Below are positions 1-7,200 of a DNA stretch of 27,546 nt, piece by piece. This DNA is from a virus (lineage: Duplodnaviria > Caudoviricetes). Numbering within the stretch: the first letter of the stretch is position 1; the number at the start of each line of letters is the position of its first letter. The DNA lies in IMG/VR virus record IMGVR_UViG_3300037458_000257, positions 1-27,546 of that record; one strand, given 5' to 3'. The position numbers and the translations under genes are program-made. The notes beneath the pieces were generated by a model. It was given only the letters and a program-made list of their open reading frames with translations. It did not search any database and was not told where the DNA came from.

Positions 1-74
1 GGTGGACCGCCAGGGACTCGAACCCTGTTCTTCTCGGTGCAAGCGAGAAATAATACCCCGTATACTAACAGCCC
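1..74 (-). tRNA. trnA: tRNA-Ala(TGC), last A of CCA just outside the window
   Basis: Reverse complement folds as a cloverleaf; anticodon arm UCUCG-CUUGCAC-CGAGA; T-loop UUCGAGU; G3:U70 Ala identity pair. Confidence 0.92.
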
Positions 75-79
75 GTAAT

Positions 80-154
80 TGGCGCCGGTGAAGGGAATCG
101 AACCCTCCTAAGTCTCGCAGACAACGAGTCACCCTCCCAGAGAGCTACACCGGC
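80..154 (-). tRNA. trnD: tRNA-Asp(GTC)
   Basis: Acceptor GCCGGUG/CACCGGC, G73, encoded CCA, loop UUGUCUG, T-loop UUCGAUU. Confidence 0.88.
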
Positions 155-159
155 ATAGT

Positions 160-230
160 TGGTGCTCCATCACAGGATCGAACTGTGTTCAGCAGCTTTG
201 TAGGAGCCGCGCCTGTCCAACAGCTGGAGC
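160..230 (-). tRNA. Atypical short (71 nt) tRNA, nominal anticodon TAC (Val)
   Basis: Encoded CCA, T-arm CACAG-UUCGAUC-CUGUG, 6-bp anticodon stem with loop CCUACAA (no U33), 3-nt D-loop. Confidence 0.6.
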
Positions 231-236
231 GTAAAG

Positions 237-310
237 TGGTAGCGGGTTCCGGAAATGCTCCGGACTCTCTAGCTTATGAGGCTAGTATGACTCTTGTTCA
301 CTTACCCGCA
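237..310 (-). tRNA. trnM: tRNA-Met(CAT), initiator-like 1:72 mismatch
   Basis: Anticodon arm CUAGC-CUCAUAA-GCUAG; acceptor UGCGGGU/ACCCGCU with U1.U72 mismatch; non-canonical T-loop AGCAUUU; CCA. Confidence 0.8.
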
Positions 311-313
311 AAC

Positions 314-388
314 TGGTGCCGCCTGTAGGAATCGAACCTACTTCCCAGACTTACAAGGCCCGTGCATCGCCACGTATGCTTAGGCGGC
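314..388 (-). tRNA. trnT: tRNA-Thr(TGT)
   Basis: Acceptor GCCGCCU/AGGCGGC, loop CUUGUAA, T-loop UUCGAUU, CCA. Confidence 0.9.
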
Positions 389-487: not shown

Positions 488-564
488 TGGTGCCCTCGGT
501 CAGATTCGAACTGACACTGTACGGCTTCTAAAACCGTCACCTCTGCCAATTGGGCTACGAGGGC
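488..564 (-). tRNA. trnL: tRNA-Leu(TAG), short variable loop (77 nt)
   Basis: Acceptor GCCCUCG/CGAGGGC, anticodon arm ACGGU-UUUAGAA-GCCGU, A73, CCA. Confidence 0.88.
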
Positions 565-571
565 GTGGAAT

Positions 572-662
572 TGGTGGTTGACGGACAGAATCGAACTTCC
601 TGCCCAGAGGGAGGTGGGTTACAGCCACCTGACAGCACCAGCTATCCTTACTTGCGTCAACC
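572..662 (-). tRNA. trnY: Atypical tRNA-Tyr(GTA), 91 nt
   Basis: Anticodon arm GGUGG-CUGUAAC-CCACC, variable arm, CCA; acceptor pairs over 8 bp; 6-bp D-stem with UGGU loop. Confidence 0.75.
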
Positions 663-688: not shown

Positions 689-776
689 TATTGCCAGTGG
701 GATTCGAACCCACATTGCCCGGGCTTACAATACCTGATCAGGTGTCCCGAGTGCCTTACCGTTAGGCGATAACATA
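689..776 (-). ncRNA. tRNA-like RNA with a 22-nt anticodon loop, no encoded CCA
   Basis: Canonical D-arm GCCU-AACGGUA-AGGC and T-arm GUGGG-UUCGAAU-CCCAC; stem CUCGGG/CCCGGG encloses 22 nt including palindrome ACCTGATCAGGT. Confidence 0.7.
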
Positions 777-869: not shown

Positions 870-955
870 TGGTGCGTGAAGTAGGATTCGAACCTACTAA
901 GCCGGAGGCGTCAGATTTACAGTCTGGTGCGACTCGCCGTCGTCGCCGTTCACGC
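870..955 (-). tRNA. trnY: tRNA-Tyr(GTA)
   Basis: Acceptor GCGUGAA/UUCACGC, loop CUGUAAA, variable arm, T-loop UUCGAAU, CCA. Confidence 0.9.
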
Positions 956-964
956 ATTAAAATT

Positions 965-1039
965 TGGCGGGCCGCCAAGGATTCGAACCCTGACCTAAGA
1001 GATTTGGAGGCTCTGATGCTACCGTTACACCAACGACCC
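965..1039 (-). tRNA. trnW: tRNA-Trp(CCA)
   Basis: Loop CUCCAAA, G73, T-loop UUCGAAU, CCA. Confidence 0.9.
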
Positions 1040-1051
1040 GTATTATTCAAA

Positions 1052-1206
1052 AGCCTTTTCAGGGACGGTATGAGGTTTTCACTCACAATGTTGAGAGTCA
1101 CTCAACTACTGGATCCCGAATAAATCAGTTACTAGGAGACTAACCCGTTCACCAACTTACCGATGAGTTGGATTCGTTCACCAACGCCTACGCCCCTGAA
1201 AAGGCT
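1052..1206 (-). ncRNA. Structured ~155-nt RNA closed by a perfect 13-bp stem
   Basis: 1052-1064 is the exact complement of 1194-1206; several internal hairpins; 11-nt direct repeat. Confidence 0.55.
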
Positions 1207-1331
1207 CTCTACAAACATACTCCAACCATGTCCTCTACGAGCGGATTCTCCAGCGCGTCTGGCCGCGTCTCGTAGATAGGCGTGAGTTTATGACGCCTCG
1301 TTTTACTTCTGGCATTGCTGCCCTTCATGAT

Positions 1332-1467
1332 TGCTGCCCTTGGAAGGTATCGAACCTCCATCACCGCACCCGATGTTACACCAGGTGTTGCATCACAGGC
1401 AAGTCTGTGATGGCCAGCTATCTTGCATTCGCCAGCACGGCATTTTGGCCTGTTAAACTACAGGGGC
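1332..1467 (-). ncRNA. tRNA-like RNA with a 65-nt structured insert replacing the anticodon loop
   Basis: Acceptor GCCCCUG/CAAGGGC, U8A9, D-arm, stem CCGUGC/GUGCGG, T-arm GGAGG-UUCGAUA-CCUUC; ends AGCA. Confidence 0.72.
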
Positions 1468-1483
1468 ATCGTTCTTGCTAAAT

Positions 1484-1562
1484 TGGCTCCAGTGAGAGGG
1501 ATCGAACCTCCCAGAATCGACGTTAACAGCGTCGCGGTCACCGCCTTTGGTCCGGCACTGGA
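1484..1562 (-). tRNA. trnN: tRNA-Asn(GTT)
   Basis: Acceptor UCCAGUG/CACUGGA, G73, arm CGACG-CUGUUAA-CGUCG, CCA; D-arm irregular. Confidence 0.88.
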
Positions 1563-1684
1563 ATAGAAGCGTCCGGCGTACCGAGATTACCGGGACAGTA
1601 TTTGCTACCACCTTCGCGTTTTCGATACGCGGGGTTCTGTCGGAGGTCTTCGTTTTCGAACGCGCATTACCGCGCTCCATAAAT

Positions 1685-1760
1685 TGGTGCTTTCGGAGGG
1701 ATTCGAACCCATCGCCTTACCGGTTAAGAGCCGGATACGCTACCGTTACGCCACGAAAGC
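1685..1760 (-). tRNA. trnK: tRNA-Lys(CTT)
   Basis: Acceptor GCUUUCG/CGAAAGC, loop CUCUUAA, T-loop UUCGAAU, CCA. Confidence 0.92.
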
Positions 1761-1770
1761 ATGTTACATA

Positions 1771-2107
1771 GTCGCCCCACCAACCTCGCGCTATATACGG
1801 ACAGTCTTTTCAACCGTCCTTACCTCTAGGAATTTGGCCGACCCATATACGGCGCAGCAAACATCTAGTGTCGCTGCGATCCGTATATGTATCGGGTTGC
1901 TTGCCGTTACTTTGTTCCCGACGGCAAACTGCGGAAATGAGTATTAAGTTTTCAGAGGATCCAACGGACGCCGTTGCGTTACCCTCGTACCTGGCGCGCA
2001 AGATTACCACCTCTTGCGCGAGTTGCATATAGTGTGCCGGGGGACGTACCCATGCGGTTGACACTATATCCCTACTCTCCAACTCGCCCACTGGTTGTGT
2101 GGGCAAC
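1771..2107 (-). ncRNA. Large (~337 nt) multi-helix RNA of unknown class
   Basis: Ends pair (2093-2107 with 1771-1785); at least 7 internal helices, with G-U pairs favouring the minus strand; lies between the attenuator and tRNA-Lys. Confidence 0.62.
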
Positions 2108-2135
2108 AAAAAAGCCGCTTCTTTCGGAGCGGCTT
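2108..2135 (-). terminator. Intrinsic terminator (attenuator) upstream of the RNA array
   Basis: Minus strand AAGCCGCUCC-GAAA-GAAGCGGC-UUUUUU. Confidence 0.88.
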
Positions 2136-2189
2136 CCTTGTGTAAAAATTCTTTCGCTTATGCGTTAGAAGTCCTTATACAAGGAAGCC
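2131..2189 (-). promoter_or_regulatory. Antiterminator helix overlapping the terminator 5' arm
   Basis: GGCUUCCUUGUAUAA (2189-2175) pairs at 14 of 15 positions with UUACACAAGGAAGCC (2145-2131). Confidence 0.82.
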
Positions 2190-2323
2190 TCGGTCTGACC
2201 ACAATCATATCCAAACTTGCGTTCAGACGCTGTGGGCAGAGTATTGGCCATAATGGCTTGGCTATGCCACAGAGCGACTGTGGTTGGGCGCGAACTTTTC
2301 AATGTTGATGTTGCGTTTCTCAT
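2165..2323 (-). CDS. 52-aa attenuator leader peptide MRNATSTLKSSRPTTVALWHSQAIMANTLPTASERKFGYDCGQTEASLYKDF
   Basis: ATG with TAAGG SD-like motif 7 nt upstream and an in-frame stop just before it; ends TAA about 30 nt before the terminator; not in the supplied ORF track. Confidence 0.75.
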   Translation of the reverse strand: MRNATSTLKSSRPTTVALWHSQAIMANTLPTASERKFGYDCGQTEASLYKDF

Positions 2324-2367
2324 AGCTGAACCTTATGTTCCTCGTCTAAGTCCTTACTGTAAGAGTG

Positions 2368-2396
2368 ACTATACGCTTTATTTATCGCGTGGTCAA
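2368..2396 (-). promoter_or_regulatory. sigma70 promoter (proximal) with embedded late motif GATAAATA
   Basis: TTGACC-N17-TATAGT, A-tract upstream; GATAAATA at 2386-2379. Confidence 0.75.
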
Positions 2397-2446
2397 CCTC
2401 TTTTTTTCAGTTCCTAAACTTATTTATCTCCTCACGTTGAAATAGC

Positions 2447-2475
2447 AGTATAATGTGATTCTTCTGCTACGTCAA
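2447..2475 (-). promoter_or_regulatory. sigma70 promoter (distal)
   Basis: TTGACG-N17-TATACT, A-tract upstream; another GATAAATA at 2428-2421. Confidence 0.75.
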
Positions 2476-3357: not shown

Positions 3358-3918
3358 TTACGTTCTGTCAGCTTCCATGTTTACTGTTGCCGTCGCTAGA
3401 ACTGTATTGGGAGAAGCTGCCATTCTGATTTCTAAGGTAAACGACGTAGTTCGTAGAGTTCCGATTGCGCCAGCAACTAGACCCCATGTTCTTGACGTAG
3501 ATAGGACAAGCCAAGTATTATATGTTCCGGTGGCGTTACCTGTATTTCCTGTAAGATTGGAAGCTCTTGCCTCATAATCGGCATTTGTGCCTCCTCCTGT
3601 AAGCCACGTGCCGCTGCCAGCGCCGGTTCCTGTCCAGGTTCCTGCATTAGAAAGTGTCAACGTAGGACCACCCGAAAGAAAAGAAATACAATCAATTGGG
3701 TTCGGTAGGGTTGCACCCAACGATACTAACTTGGTGGCACCAGTAAAGTTGCCTATACTTATTGTGCCTGATGTTGGTACAGATACATTCGAATTATTCT
3801 TCTGTCCCGTAGGAACATAAGTTCCGCCTGCATAATATTCGCTGAGAGAGATCGGGTTACTTCCTCCGAACTCTGTTTGTACGTGGCTAAGACCTATGTT
3901 CGTGGTAGGTATAGTCAT
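3358..3918 (-). CDS. Tail-fibre tip / gp38-like adhesin
   Basis: N-terminal VQTEFGGSNPISLSEYY...PTSGTISIGNF motif typical of small proteins following chaperone-bearing fibres; Gly/Thr/Trp-rich. Confidence 0.65.
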   Translation of the reverse strand: MTIPTTNIGLSHVQTEFGGSNPISLSEYYAGGTYVPTGQKNNSNVSVPTSGTISIGNFTGATKLVSLGATLPNPIDCISFLSGGPTLTLSNAGTWTGTGAGSGTWLTGGGTNADYEARASNLTGNTGNATGTYNTWLVLSTSRTWGLVAGAIGTLRTTSFTLEIRMAASPNTVLATATVNMEADRT

Positions 3919-3919
3919 C

Positions 3920-4210
3920 TTATCCCTCTGTTACATCAATAGGCGGAATAGAAATATTGTCTATCTCTTGCTGCTTCTCAAATTCCAGTGTAGAGCTCTT
4001 CCATTGTTTCATAACCTCGCCTGTAGCTTTTTGAAGAGCCACAGGAATGGTAGCGGGCGTAACGGTAACTGGATCTGGTGCAGCACCTTGTATTGTACCG
4101 TGCTTATTCCTTAGATATGTAATAAGCCGATCAAGGTCTGCATCCGAAACGTTGTACGGATAGGACAGTGTTCCTTGTGCGTTCGTAAAAGTGAAAGTAA
4201 TATTACCCAT
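3920..4210 (-). CDS. Small tail-fibre-associated protein (start revised to MGNITF)
   Basis: GAGGA SD before ATG at 4210; overlaps the end of the upstream fibre gene. Confidence 0.6.
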   Translation of the reverse strand: MGNITFTFTNAQGTLSYPYNVSDADLDRLITYLRNKHGTIQGAAPDPVTVTPATIPVALQKATGEVMKQWKSSTLEFEKQQEIDNISIPPIDVTEG

Positions 4211-7200
4211 TTCGTAGTTCCTCAATTAATTTTGCTTGTGCATCGACCTTTGCGTTAAGTTCCTTGACTGCTTCGATTAGCACGCCAACGAGCGCACCAT
4301 AATTGACCCCGTATTCTTCGCCTGTGTTACCTTCGGCGTCTGTCTTCTCGGAGTGAGTAACGACCTCTGGAACAACTTCAAGCACTTCCTGCGCAATGAC
4401 ACCCATCTGTAGCTTCTTTTCGGGGTCGTCAATACGATTGAAGTTAACACCTCGCAGTCTTAACACTTTTGTGAGCGAATCCTCAATTGTGTAGATGTTT
4501 TCCTTGAGGCGAGCATCCGAGAAGGCTACGATATCGCCTGTTGCATAAATGGCACCCGTGACATACACTGAATATGAAGATGATGTAGTAGATCCATCGA
4601 TTCCCATGCAGCCGTTCGCCACACTCCAATAATAGTGCCATGCCGATCGATATTGTCCACCGTTACCCGACGAGTCCCACATCATATTGACCGCCGAGTA
4701 GTTATCGTATATGCCGCCATACGAACTTTTACTTCCGTAGGTTTGTACAGGCGAATAAGTGCCGGTGCCGTTATAACCTACGCCTATCGAGCTGCCGCCG
4801 TCCATATAATAACGATAGGCAGTGCCAATCACCATACTAGCATTTCCGAACAAGTTACTCGAATTATCAAAGTAACCCGCCACCGTATATGTGCTGGTGC
4901 CGACACCACGGGTAAATTGAAGATTTCCTGCATATGTCGAGGATGGGTTATTATTGCTTGTAATGCGCCAACCGTATCCTTCTGTAGGATATCCAAGATG
5001 TATGGAGGTATTTGCAACTACGCTGGCCTGTGCGTTATAGACTCGTAACGGCAACGTCGCAGTGCCGTCGACTTGGACTGTTAAAGCTGAATCGTGTTGT
5101 CCGTTGCTATCTAATGTCTGAATCTTTCTCCAGCTACCCCATGACCCATTACTCTGATATCGGTGCCAAATACTGTCGCTATTAGGGAAGTATAGTTGTG
5201 AACAATATCCGCCAGTGTGTTTATTCATCACCAGCATCACGTTTGCATTGTCGGCACCTTCAGGGATATTCGTCGAACCGTTTGCAATCGAACCAAAGTG
5301 TATTAAACGCAGGCTCGAATACTGGTTGGTGTTATAATAGCCGTTTGCGTTGATGTAGCCGCCATATCCGTAAGTAAGCCAGTTATTTTGAGCTAGGACT
5401 TCGCCGTTCAAGGTTAGCGTGCCGCTAACCGCCGCACCGGAGTTATCTACGTAGAATCTTGAAGTGCCGTCAGACACTAAATGTATTGTGCCGCTATTAT
5501 TACTATACATTCCGGAATTATTATCCGAAATAAACGAGTATGTCGGCGCTGCTGCGGATCCGCCTGGTCCAAAGAATTTACCAACACCCATCGAGATGCC
5601 GCTATTATCAAAGACTACTCGTTGATTTCCGTTGATGGCAACAGAAATAGTGTCGGCACTGGTTGCTCGGTAAAAGCCTGTTCCTGTATCTCCAAAATAT
5701 ATAGACGGCGCTGCTACCGTTCCGGCTGGTACTTGAACTCTTCCGCCGAATGTGACTGAGTCAACTGTATTTCCCGTTCGTTCTACTGCCACCCAATTGC
5801 TTACTGAGTTGTTTGCATCGTTGATAAGGCGACCCTGGAATGTTTCTGAATTAACACTAAAGTCCCATGATCTATTATCTGCGGTGGCATCAGTATCATA
5901 AAAGTTTATGCTAGGTTGTACTGCGCTAATTTGTATGGCTGAGTCTGTGCCACCGCCTGTTGCTGCAAATACTGCGCCGGGGCCTGTAGTAGGATCGCCC
6001 AAGAATGCAACGCCGCGCGTCGAGTTTCCTCGAACCATACTCTTTGTATTAACATCGCTCAGAACAATATCGTCTGTATATGTTGTAAAGCTAGTTTCAA
6101 ATGCGACGGTAGTAGCGTAATGCCCGACATCTTGTATCTCTACGTAAAGATCAATTGCGCTTCCACTAACATACACTTCTAAATACGCGGCTGTGGTTGA
6201 GTTCTTTGTAGTTTTTACCGAAGTTACATATCCTAGGGAATTATTAATAATATTCAACTCATTGGCTGTTGCATCCCACTTACTATCCCAATAGATTTCC
6301 ATAGATTGCGGGATTTGGGAACCGCCTGTGGTATATAATCTGACAATTGATGTGCCTCGCCCATTGTTCGACTCTATCTTCGCAACACGTACCCATTGAT
6401 TTGTAGCAGTGCCGTTTGCCTTCTTACTATACAACAAAGCACCCGAATTATAGGTAGGCCGTGTCGTATAGTTCCACGCTCCGGAAATAGTTGCCGAGGT
6501 GTTTTTGAGAGGTACGTTTGAAGATAGTCTAGCATCTGCTACGGTTCCTGTGGATAGGTTAGTAGCATTGAGCGAGGTTAGTCCTGAACCGTTTCCAGTA
6601 ATTGCTTTGGTGCTTGCGTTAATTTGTAACGCCCAAGCAGGAGTTCCGTTTCTATCATAGATACCGTAGGTCGTGCCGGCATCAGTTAAGATAAAGTCTA
6701 CACCCGACGTTGCGGCGGAATTTACTAGACGGAATCTTTGCTCCTTCGAAGATGCAGAGCTACTGCCTAACGTAAACGTTCCAGTAGAGTCTGCGGATGC
6801 GTTAAATACATGTGAGGCGCCGTTAGATGTAACAGTGCCGCCGACTGTGAGCGCTCCGGTACCAGCAAATGTATAAGTTGGATTGCTTGTAGCATTACCA
6901 AAAGTTAGATTACTAATATTCTGCGCAGAGCGCGTAAAGGTAAAGGCATTAGTCTGAGAATTGCTTGCATCGTTTGTTGCTCGCAATTCCATTGCTGTGC
7001 CGTCTGCAATCCACACCCATTTCTTTTCGTCTGTACCGCCGTCTGTTTGATTCAACTGGAGGTATGGAAAGGATCCCTGAATCTCCATCGAGCTGCCCGT
7101 AGATACAACCGACGATGCAGACAGCGATCCGTTAATGGTTGCCCCGGAGGAATTTACTGTCACCCTTGCTGTACCGTCAGATACTAGATAGAGCTCACCC

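Follow-up and report, generated by a model that had tools for sequence, protein, structure and literature searches.

In the leaders of amino-acid operons (trpL, hisL, leuL and pheL, as well as the multivalent thrL and ilvGMEDA leaders), between one and three amino acids are repeated in runs of control codons, and a protector helix makes termination the default when the leader is not translated. In the upstream ORF (uORF) of whiB7 (wblC) from mycobacteria and other Actinobacteria, efficient translation leads to an intrinsic terminator, while a stalled ribosome or loss of the start codon leads to an antiterminator and hence to read-through (bioRxiv 10.1101/2023.06.02.543512). According to that preprint, the composition of the whiB7 uORF decides which starvation is sensed, knockdown of tRNAs and synthetases induces the system, the M. 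smegmatis uORF contains every amino acid but Cys, and loss of the single Trp codon weakens the response to Trp. In E. coli, ribosome stalls at many positions of the toiL uORF relieve repression of topAI-yjhQ (PMC12121999). Phage tRNAs, on the other side, are reported to rescue infection from retron PtuAB and similar nucleases, in a manner that depends on expression strength (PMC11555353); that work describes a strong promoter, and its main text contains "leader" and "attenuat" 0 times. What phages gain from carrying tRNAs is debated, the candidates being codon supply, the shut-off of the host, and defence through cleavage of tRNAs, and an attenuator placed before tRNA genes would spell out in its sequence what a phage measures before making them. 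Here we describe a putative leader of this kind.

The DNA analyzed here in its whole length of 27,546 nucleotides (the window) is a 27.5-kb fragment of a phage genome, in a record that is 7% complete. Structural genes occupy 3.3-27 kb, a tRNA and non-coding RNA block lies at positions 2100 to 1 on the minus strand, and the contig ends inside that block. The major capsid protein shares 76% identity with that of PA5oct/Paride and 65-66% with those of GAP32-type phages, and the source phage is a PA5oct/Paride-like jumbo myophage. A gene of 274 aa (3332-2508, minus strand) stands directly upstream of the leader; its matches, to one cyanophage protein and to PHROG families without known function, are weak, and no relatives of it were returned by a peptide search of viral contigs. 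The features of the leader region, from the promoter-like sites to the terminator, are:

2447..2475, minus strand: upstream sigma-70-like promoter site (10 of 12 consensus matches)
2421..2428, minus strand: upstream copy of the GATAAATA box (motif count)
2368..2396, minus strand: proximal sigma-70-like promoter site (10 of 12 consensus matches)
2379..2386, minus strand: second GATAAATA box, within the spacer of the proximal sigma-70-like site (motif count)
2331..2335, minus strand: Shine-Dalgarno-like site, 7 bases ahead of the start codon (read from the sequence)
2165..2323, minus strand: leader ORF of 52 codons with all 20 amino acids (ORF list; 47 homologues)
2201..2320, minus strand: predicted sensing zone, covering codons 2-41 and every one of the 20 amino acids (composition, homologues, folding)
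2175..2189, minus strand: 5' strand of the antiterminator, codons 45-50 (folds, covariation)
2148..2171, minus strand: inner hairpin that contains the stop codon and closes the antiterminator (fold; three of five pairs with compensatory change in the family)
2131..2145, minus strand: 3' strand of the antiterminator, overlapping the 5' arm of the terminator (folds, covariation)
2105..2140, minus strand: intrinsic terminator, stem 2135-2112 and U run 2113-2108 (folds, covariation)

The locus thus has the anatomy of an attenuator, namely a short ORF with a ribosome-binding site, a terminator before the genes, and, under the end of the ORF, an antiterminator that excludes the terminator. An earlier note, made from the sequence alone, had stated that the ORF at 2323-2165 uses 40 distinct codons among its 52, completes the 20 amino acids by codon 41 with the start Met uncounted, contains each of the six Ser codons once and uses all four Ala codons, and all of these counts were correct upon recounting; Ala accounts for 6 of the 52 codons, and the sixth Ser codon (codon 47) sits in the antiterminator strand, beyond the predicted sensing zone. 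When codon diversity was compared, as that note had suggested, with 17 genes of the window read as 6916 overlapping stretches of 52 codons, not one stretch reached 40 distinct codons (mean 29.7, maximum 39). For a single ORF, a null based on base composition gave a probability of 0.025 for at least 40 codons and of 0.0014 for 40 codons together with 20 amino acids, while synonymous variety with the peptide held fixed was only mildly high (p=0.07 under uniform usage, p=0.02 under phage usage). The leader peptide had no Pfam match above the cut-off and no PHROG match.

The proposed order of promoters, ORF, terminator and tRNA array was seen as such, with two qualifications, in that the sigma-70-like sites of the region are not above chance in number (6 against 5.6 expected) and the array runs on past the end of the contig, where the window stops. 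The GATAAATA box, which we take to resemble the T4 late promoter, occurs seven times in the window (at 2386, 2428, 3345, 10987, 13517, 26375 and 26420) compared to 1.04 expected, and the five copies outside the leader region are found at or just ahead of gene starts, on the coding strand; it is likely the late promoter of the source phage group. On the minus strand, no promoter-like site of either type, sigma-70-like or GATAAATA, was found between the terminator and position 1 of the window.

Within the tRNA block, ARAGORN at default settings called seven tRNAs and Rfam nine, and relaxed settings and folds added a few degenerate ones. In the order in which they follow the terminator, the elements are:

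1905..2075, minus strand: conserved structured ncRNA, first element after the terminator, with no Rfam family (covariation)
1685..1760, minus strand: tRNA-Lys(CTT), the first tRNA here and likewise in the six nearest relatives (ARAGORN, Rfam)
1485..1563, minus strand: tRNA-Asn(GTT)-like gene, low score (relaxed ARAGORN)
1333..1468, minus strand: tRNA-like gene with a long insertion, anticodon uncertain (Rfam, fold)
1046..1210, minus strand: long closed multi-branch structure (fold only)
965..1039, minus strand: tRNA-Trp(CCA) (ARAGORN, Rfam)
870..955, minus strand: tRNA-Tyr(GTA) (ARAGORN, Rfam)
689..776, minus strand: tRNA-Tyr-like gene with an insertion (Rfam, fold)
584..660, minus strand: degenerate tRNA-like gene (19.5 bits, below the cut-off; fold)
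488..564, minus strand: tRNA-Leu(TAG) (ARAGORN, Rfam)
314..388, minus strand: tRNA-Thr(TGT) (ARAGORN, Rfam)
237..310, minus strand: tRNA with a CAT anticodon (relaxed ARAGORN)
160..231, minus strand: cloverleaf with a TAC (Val) anticodon, called by neither ARAGORN nor Rfam (fold, by eye)
80..154, minus strand: tRNA-Asp(GTC) (ARAGORN, Rfam)
1..74, minus strand: tRNA-Ala(TGC), at the contig end (ARAGORN, Rfam)

Half of the predicted pairs of the ncRNA at 2075-1905 (19 of 38) showed two-sided change among seven sequences (the window, L069, L074, L076, L079, L100 and L106), in which the ncRNA between terminator and tRNA-Lys measures about 170-230 bases; the other subgroup of leaders carries a different conserved RNA in the same place. 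Folding also gave stable minus-strand structures between the tRNAs, at 1900-1770, 1682-1568, 1330-1215 and 490-395, and the tRNA-like genes at 1468-1333, 776-689 and 660-584 have insertions or degenerate arms, with up to three showing Tyr-type anticodon loops. Contigs identical to part of the leader were present in four wetland metatranscriptome runs from four studies, and one of them spans 2313-2002, across the terminator; such contigs show presence only, not strand, ends or level, and DNA carry-over is possible. RNA contigs of three runs carry a variant of 1463-1218 with 17 differences. Cover by RNA contigs was little at 2401-2600 and none at 3401-5400, gaps that carry no evidential weight.

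At the level of RNA structure, the pairing that the earlier note had proposed between 2189-2175 and 2145-2131, with 14 of 15 positions paired (the exception being one A.C) and with overlap of the 5' arm of the terminator, was confirmed by reading and by folds. Once the ORF part is removed, the terminator has a folding energy of about -19 to -20 kcal/mol. In the window, an antiterminator of about -29 kcal/mol is set against a terminator of about -20. A simple terminator scan with an 8-base loop limit did not list the leader terminator, whose hairpin loop is longer. Searched against Rfam, the switch reached the gathering score of no leader family (Thr_leader, RcsR1, T-box and others); its likeness to known leaders stayed below threshold, at 23 bits for Thr_leader in the window (cut-off 55) and at 26-27 bits for RcsR1 in two homologues (cut-off 60). 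Blastn matches that seemed to fall on the switch (2105-2187) turned out to have reversed query coordinates and belong to the tRNA-Thr gene.

Peptide searches of viral contigs found no relatives of the window leader or of the L106 leader, a subfamily DNA pattern returned none, and blastn gave no match of the leader to cultured phages. Because the peptide searches failed, homologues were sought by DNA patterns of the helices alone. The helix pattern returned 59 metagenome loci and 46 viral loci, 18 of the latter with a U run after the hairpin; the other 28, lacking the U run and located in unrelated DNA, were dropped. A terminator-loop pattern hit at least 120 loci, mostly ordinary gene-end terminators, and among the matches listed were two new leaders (L179 and L188). 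From 55 non-redundant loci, the window included, we removed six with neither leader nor tRNA and left out L065 (cut upstream) and L066 (cut at the start, with 19 of 20 amino acids), to obtain 47 complete and distinct leaders; two further ones found by peptide, each with 20 of 20 amino acids, are outside this count. Leaders were filtered for at least 17 kinds of amino acids, choosing the richer frame, and in the unfiltered listing no tRNA-linked locus had a poorer leader only, while 44 of the 47 share one frame over the antiterminator. All family counts given below are inflated by kinship among the homologues.

The expectation that related tRNA arrays would be preceded by short ORFs with such helices was borne out by these 47 leaders, which have 47-60 codons and a covarying antiterminator and whose median identity is 35%, with a pairwise low of 5%; the closest to the window leader is L069, at 50% identity, and no other exceeds 36%. 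A tRNA lies within 1.5 kb of the leader in 43 of 47, and three of the four misses have less than 800 bases of flank. In 43 of 47 a GATAAATA box is found no more than 120 bases from the leader start, and a loosely defined GGA, GAG or AGG precedes that start in 40 of 47. Of the 235 cases given by the five other reading frames, only 5 are open and 6 hold the full amino-acid set, and the stop codon keeps its distance from the U run (51 bases in the window, 46-55 in the family). In L054 and L064 the last dozen codons are in another frame, and the stop is kept 49 bases before the U run. Two leaders are unlike both main subgroups, L068 (57 codons, 20 of 20 amino acids, first tRNA 14 bases after the terminator) and L108 (47 codons, 19 of 20, with 19 tRNAs in 2.5 kb), and are either distant members or independent origins. 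A search for the switch pattern in a prokaryote genome collection gave five matches, none with a short 20-amino-acid leader. A Chitinophagaceae MAG contig (L273) has the switch pattern, a 35-codon ORF situated 47 bases upstream of the U run, and two tRNAs close by.

What these peptides have in common is their inventory. Even with the start Met left out, 45 of 47 leaders have the complete set of 20 amino acids, the exceptions being L054, which has no Trp, and L108, which has no Tyr although its array includes tRNA-Tyr. Among representatives below 50% identity, 13 of 15 have the full set, against 0.72 expected from pooled composition, compared to 7 of 237 control ORFs of 44-62 codons from tRNA regions without the terminator. 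Moreover, 43 of 47 leaders reach the full set ahead of the antiterminator, where 9.3 would be expected when the order of residues is shuffled. Chimeras assembled column by column retained 20 of 20 amino acids in 24% of cases overall, in a test that misalignment can inflate, and within subgroups in 43% and 33%, versus 37/38 and 7/7 of the real leaders. Residues present as a sole copy differ at 11% of positions and multi-copy residues at 42% (310 pairs at 50-90% identity, which are not independent), and Trp occurs exactly once in 46 of 47 leaders. Sole residues can also relocate: the only Cys lies 4 codons before the antiterminator in the window and 36-40 codons before it in the six nearest relatives, about 33 codons apart. 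Some positions do show slower nonsynonymous change, and one subgroup retains recognizable peptide motifs. Taken together, the comparisons strongly support selection on the amino-acid inventory of the leader, and the peptide itself is likely irrelevant.

Such selection reaches the amino acids but not every codon, and the earlier description of the leader as "pan-codon" did not survive, given that the sensing zone of the window covers only 33 of 45 decoding classes and that, across the family, a single codon dominates Ile (80 of 99) and Tyr (82 of 88). With the peptides held fixed, 41 of 47 leaders exceed a uniform null in codon variety. Synonymous variety between decoding classes is raised (z>0 in 24 of 25 representatives, mean 1.6), that between U and C endings less so (z>0 in 16 of 25, mean 0.3), and the two-codon NNY amino acids show some excess (34 vs 25.8). 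The sensing zones of the family strongly favor U-ending codons (Tyr 26:1, Phe 36:7, Ile 46:6, Asp 27:7, His 23:7), a preference that is absent from the genes of the window and that may reflect either a more sensitive test through wobble-read codons or A+T bias. We also considered whether the leader is tuned to the phage's own anticodons; exact matches of leader codons to phage anticodons are not enriched (15-21 observed, 18.7-22.3 expected), which fits a test of the tRNA pool that the ribosome meets, largely the host's.

Compensatory changes are seen in both helices. Using 36 of the 47 sequences, antiterminator positions are 90.8% paired, with two-sided change at 7 pairs (26 cells), and terminator positions are 98% paired, with two-sided change at 4 pairs (10 cells), and shuffled and slid controls were well below the real helices. 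As the search pattern had imposed eight core pairs, no weight is given to their invariance; L188, found through a different pattern, has one core pair changed on both sides. Stability computed locally favors the antiterminator over the terminator in all of the 46 leaders with a value for each. When the RNA was masked up to the edge of a modelled ribosome, a calculation that had been proposed along with the attenuator, the fold of the window flipped to the terminator at codons 42-44, that is, 1-3 codons past the twentieth amino acid at codon 41, and in the five homologues tested the flip came 2-3 codons ahead of the antiterminator strand. With a stall modelled upstream, equilibrium folds still contain partial terminator pairing (about 0.4-0.8 at many codons), and given such mixed ensembles the outcome would depend on co-transcriptional kinetics; the inner hairpin is a candidate polymerase pause site that might synchronize the ribosome. 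The homologues, the covariation and the modelled-ribosome folds together strongly support the geometry and the sign that had been proposed, in which a stall frees the antiterminator.

Four complete relatives (G001-G004, 360-385 kb, 44-55 tRNAs) allow the leader to be seen in front of a whole array. In each of them one such leader heads a tRNA region of 50-60 kb; three of these regions serve all 20 amino acids within their first 12-15 kb, and the remaining one serves 17 there. The first block of G003 has no called His, Arg or Thr tRNAs. Further GATAAATA boxes inside the first block number none or one in G001 and G004, five in G002 and six in G003, and in the latter two the leader can therefore gate only part of the block. 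The idea that the leader gates the whole array is doubtful in these two of the four relatives. A tRNA with a CTA anticodon, of the amber suppressor type, is present in each of G001-G004 and in GAP32. No leader was seen in the stretches retrieved from the cultured relatives Paride, GAP32, 2.275.O and Phosso. Two leaders of the same geometry are found in the cultured Ralstonia phage RsoM2USA (MG752970):

start 112124, minus strand: leader L244, behind a TATAAATA box, with an antiterminator/terminator pair
start 87361, minus strand: leader L245, behind a TATAAATA box, with an antiterminator/terminator pair

They have 25 and 37 codons, of which 21/22 and 30/30 match the amino acids of their own tRNA block, while crosswise the matches fall to 4/22 and 1/30. 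No leader was seen at the third tRNA cluster of this phage. The L244 ORF is absent from the annotated RsoM2USA features examined, and in the accessible text of the genome paper "attenuat", "terminator" and "promoter" occur 0 times (PMC8504454). RsoM2USA is an independent case tying leader content to tRNA supply. In three of the four complete relatives, a leader with 20 of 20 amino acids precedes a block that serves 20, and the correspondence is one of amino acids, not of exact anticodons.

Given a leader switch whose anatomy, family-wide conservation, selected composition and covariation are directly observed, we infer that the leader is translated and regulates the tRNA block, and propose, with a probability of about 0.78, that it is a ribosome-coupled transcription attenuator that senses the usable tRNA supply for every amino acid. 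RNA polymerase would start at the sigma-70-like or the GATAAATA sites, with a ribosome translating the leader behind it. If codons 2-41 are decoded promptly, the ribosome would cover the antiterminator strand from about codon 42, the terminator would fold and transcription would stop near 2108. If instead a needed class of tRNA is cleaved, uncharged or scarce, with anticodon nucleases or starvation as the putative trigger, the ribosome would lag, the stronger antiterminator would form, and the ncRNA and tRNAs would be made, relieving the shortage and closing a feedback loop. With no translation of the leader at all, read-through would be expected too.

That the ORF arose by chance in a structured leader RNA might be argued from its single-ORF probability of 20 amino acids (2-3%) and from its having been picked post hoc; such reading, to which we would assign next to no weight, is refuted by the completeness of 45 of 47 homologues and of 13 of 15 divergent representatives, and by the closed state of the other frames. 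Another explanation is that the attenuator reads overall ribosome speed or availability, as affected by antibiotics, ribosome-targeting toxins, infection stage or dormancy, with the varied sequence as an unbiased test track. Since read-through is the default of the geometry, any loss of coupling would open the switch, leader codons match phage anticodons no better than chance, and both toiL and whiB7 uORFs answer to several antibiotic classes. A sensor of speed, however, needs no sole Trp, Cys, His or Met, and the strict 20 of 20, the relocated sole residues and the block-matched RsoM2USA leaders point to tRNA identity instead, which makes this explanation unlikely in our view, even though the two can both hold in part.

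It is also conceivable that the ORF encodes a small functional protein whose transcript ends at the terminator, the tRNAs being made from other promoters or through leakage. The peptide motifs kept in one subgroup, the slower nonsynonymous change at some positions and the internal promoter boxes of G002 and G003 would agree with this. Identity, however, goes down to 5% while composition and stop position hold, frame changes are tolerated at the C-terminus, conservation tracks the copy number of a residue and not its position, a covarying antiterminator is useless to a plain terminator, no promoter-like minus-strand site separates the terminator from position 1, and the peptide matches no Pfam or PHROG family; we thus consider a functional protein quite improbable. 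Slightly less likely still is a switch set by a protein or RNA factor, or one of opposite sign, with translation incidental. T4-like phages alter the host polymerase, a conserved structured RNA directly follows the terminator, and the equilibrium folds are finely balanced, all of which would suit such a factor, but only the leader frame is open, its stop keeps a distance of 46-55 bases from the U run, and the last missing amino acid comes in shortly before a ribosome would reach over the helix, and we therefore hold this to be very improbable.

If the leader is indeed a sensor of tRNA supply, a broader view suggests itself, toward which we lean only slightly, according to which jumbo phages audit the tRNA pool of the host and the amino acids of the leader itemize what the following tRNA block supplies, with all 20 ahead of complete sets and complementary subsets ahead of split ones, as in RsoM2USA. 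Such an audit would detect damage by tRNA-cleaving immunity or dormancy and switch on replacement tRNAs, and would amount to a sensing counter-defence built from RNA and the ribosome alone. An attenuator of tRNA genes would also bring these genes, and viruses, into the range of leader-peptide attenuation, and would be a case of selection for the amino-acid inventory of a peptide rather than for its sequence. With it, a general sensor of tRNA damage would be at hand for finding new tRNA-targeting defence systems.

The claim that no example had been described can be kept in part. Attenuation of tRNA genes or phage tRNA blocks was not found in the literature searched, for the most part openly available, nor in the accessible portions of PMC8504454 and PMC9693318, and feedback control of tRNA genes by decoding speed was likewise not found in that literature for any cell or virus; a leader with a nearly complete set of amino acids, however, has a precedent in the whiB7 uORF. 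The work on phage tRNAs as counter-defence supplies a likely purpose for the leader, with no sensor described in the parts of PMC11555353 available. With the leaders of amino-acid operons, the phage leader shares the leader ORF, the alternative helices, the intrinsic terminator and read-through upon stalling; it differs from them in having each rare amino acid once and in controlling tRNAs, not enzymes, and it has neither the run of a control amino acid nor the biosynthetic genes downstream that mark trpL, hisL and thrL. No protector helix was seen in it. The toiL system (PMC12121999) differs in that it combines translational attenuation with Rho, senses antibiotics, and controls a toxin-antitoxin pair. 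The closest likeness is to whiB7, with its long and varied uORF and the same terminator/antiterminator logic. In whiB7 uORFs, Ala makes up 25-40% of the residues and several other amino acids are often missing, whereas the phage leaders have a mean of 5.4 Ala and keep the full set, and the output of whiB7 is a transcription factor in Actinobacteria, while that of the phage leader would be tRNA genes and an ncRNA. Being not Ala-rich and having tRNAs downstream, the phage leader is not a whiB7/wblC uORF proper; it is a leader that works like a whiB7-type attenuator, with no claim of kinship in sequence, and that stands outside both the whiB7 and the trp/his/thr leader families.
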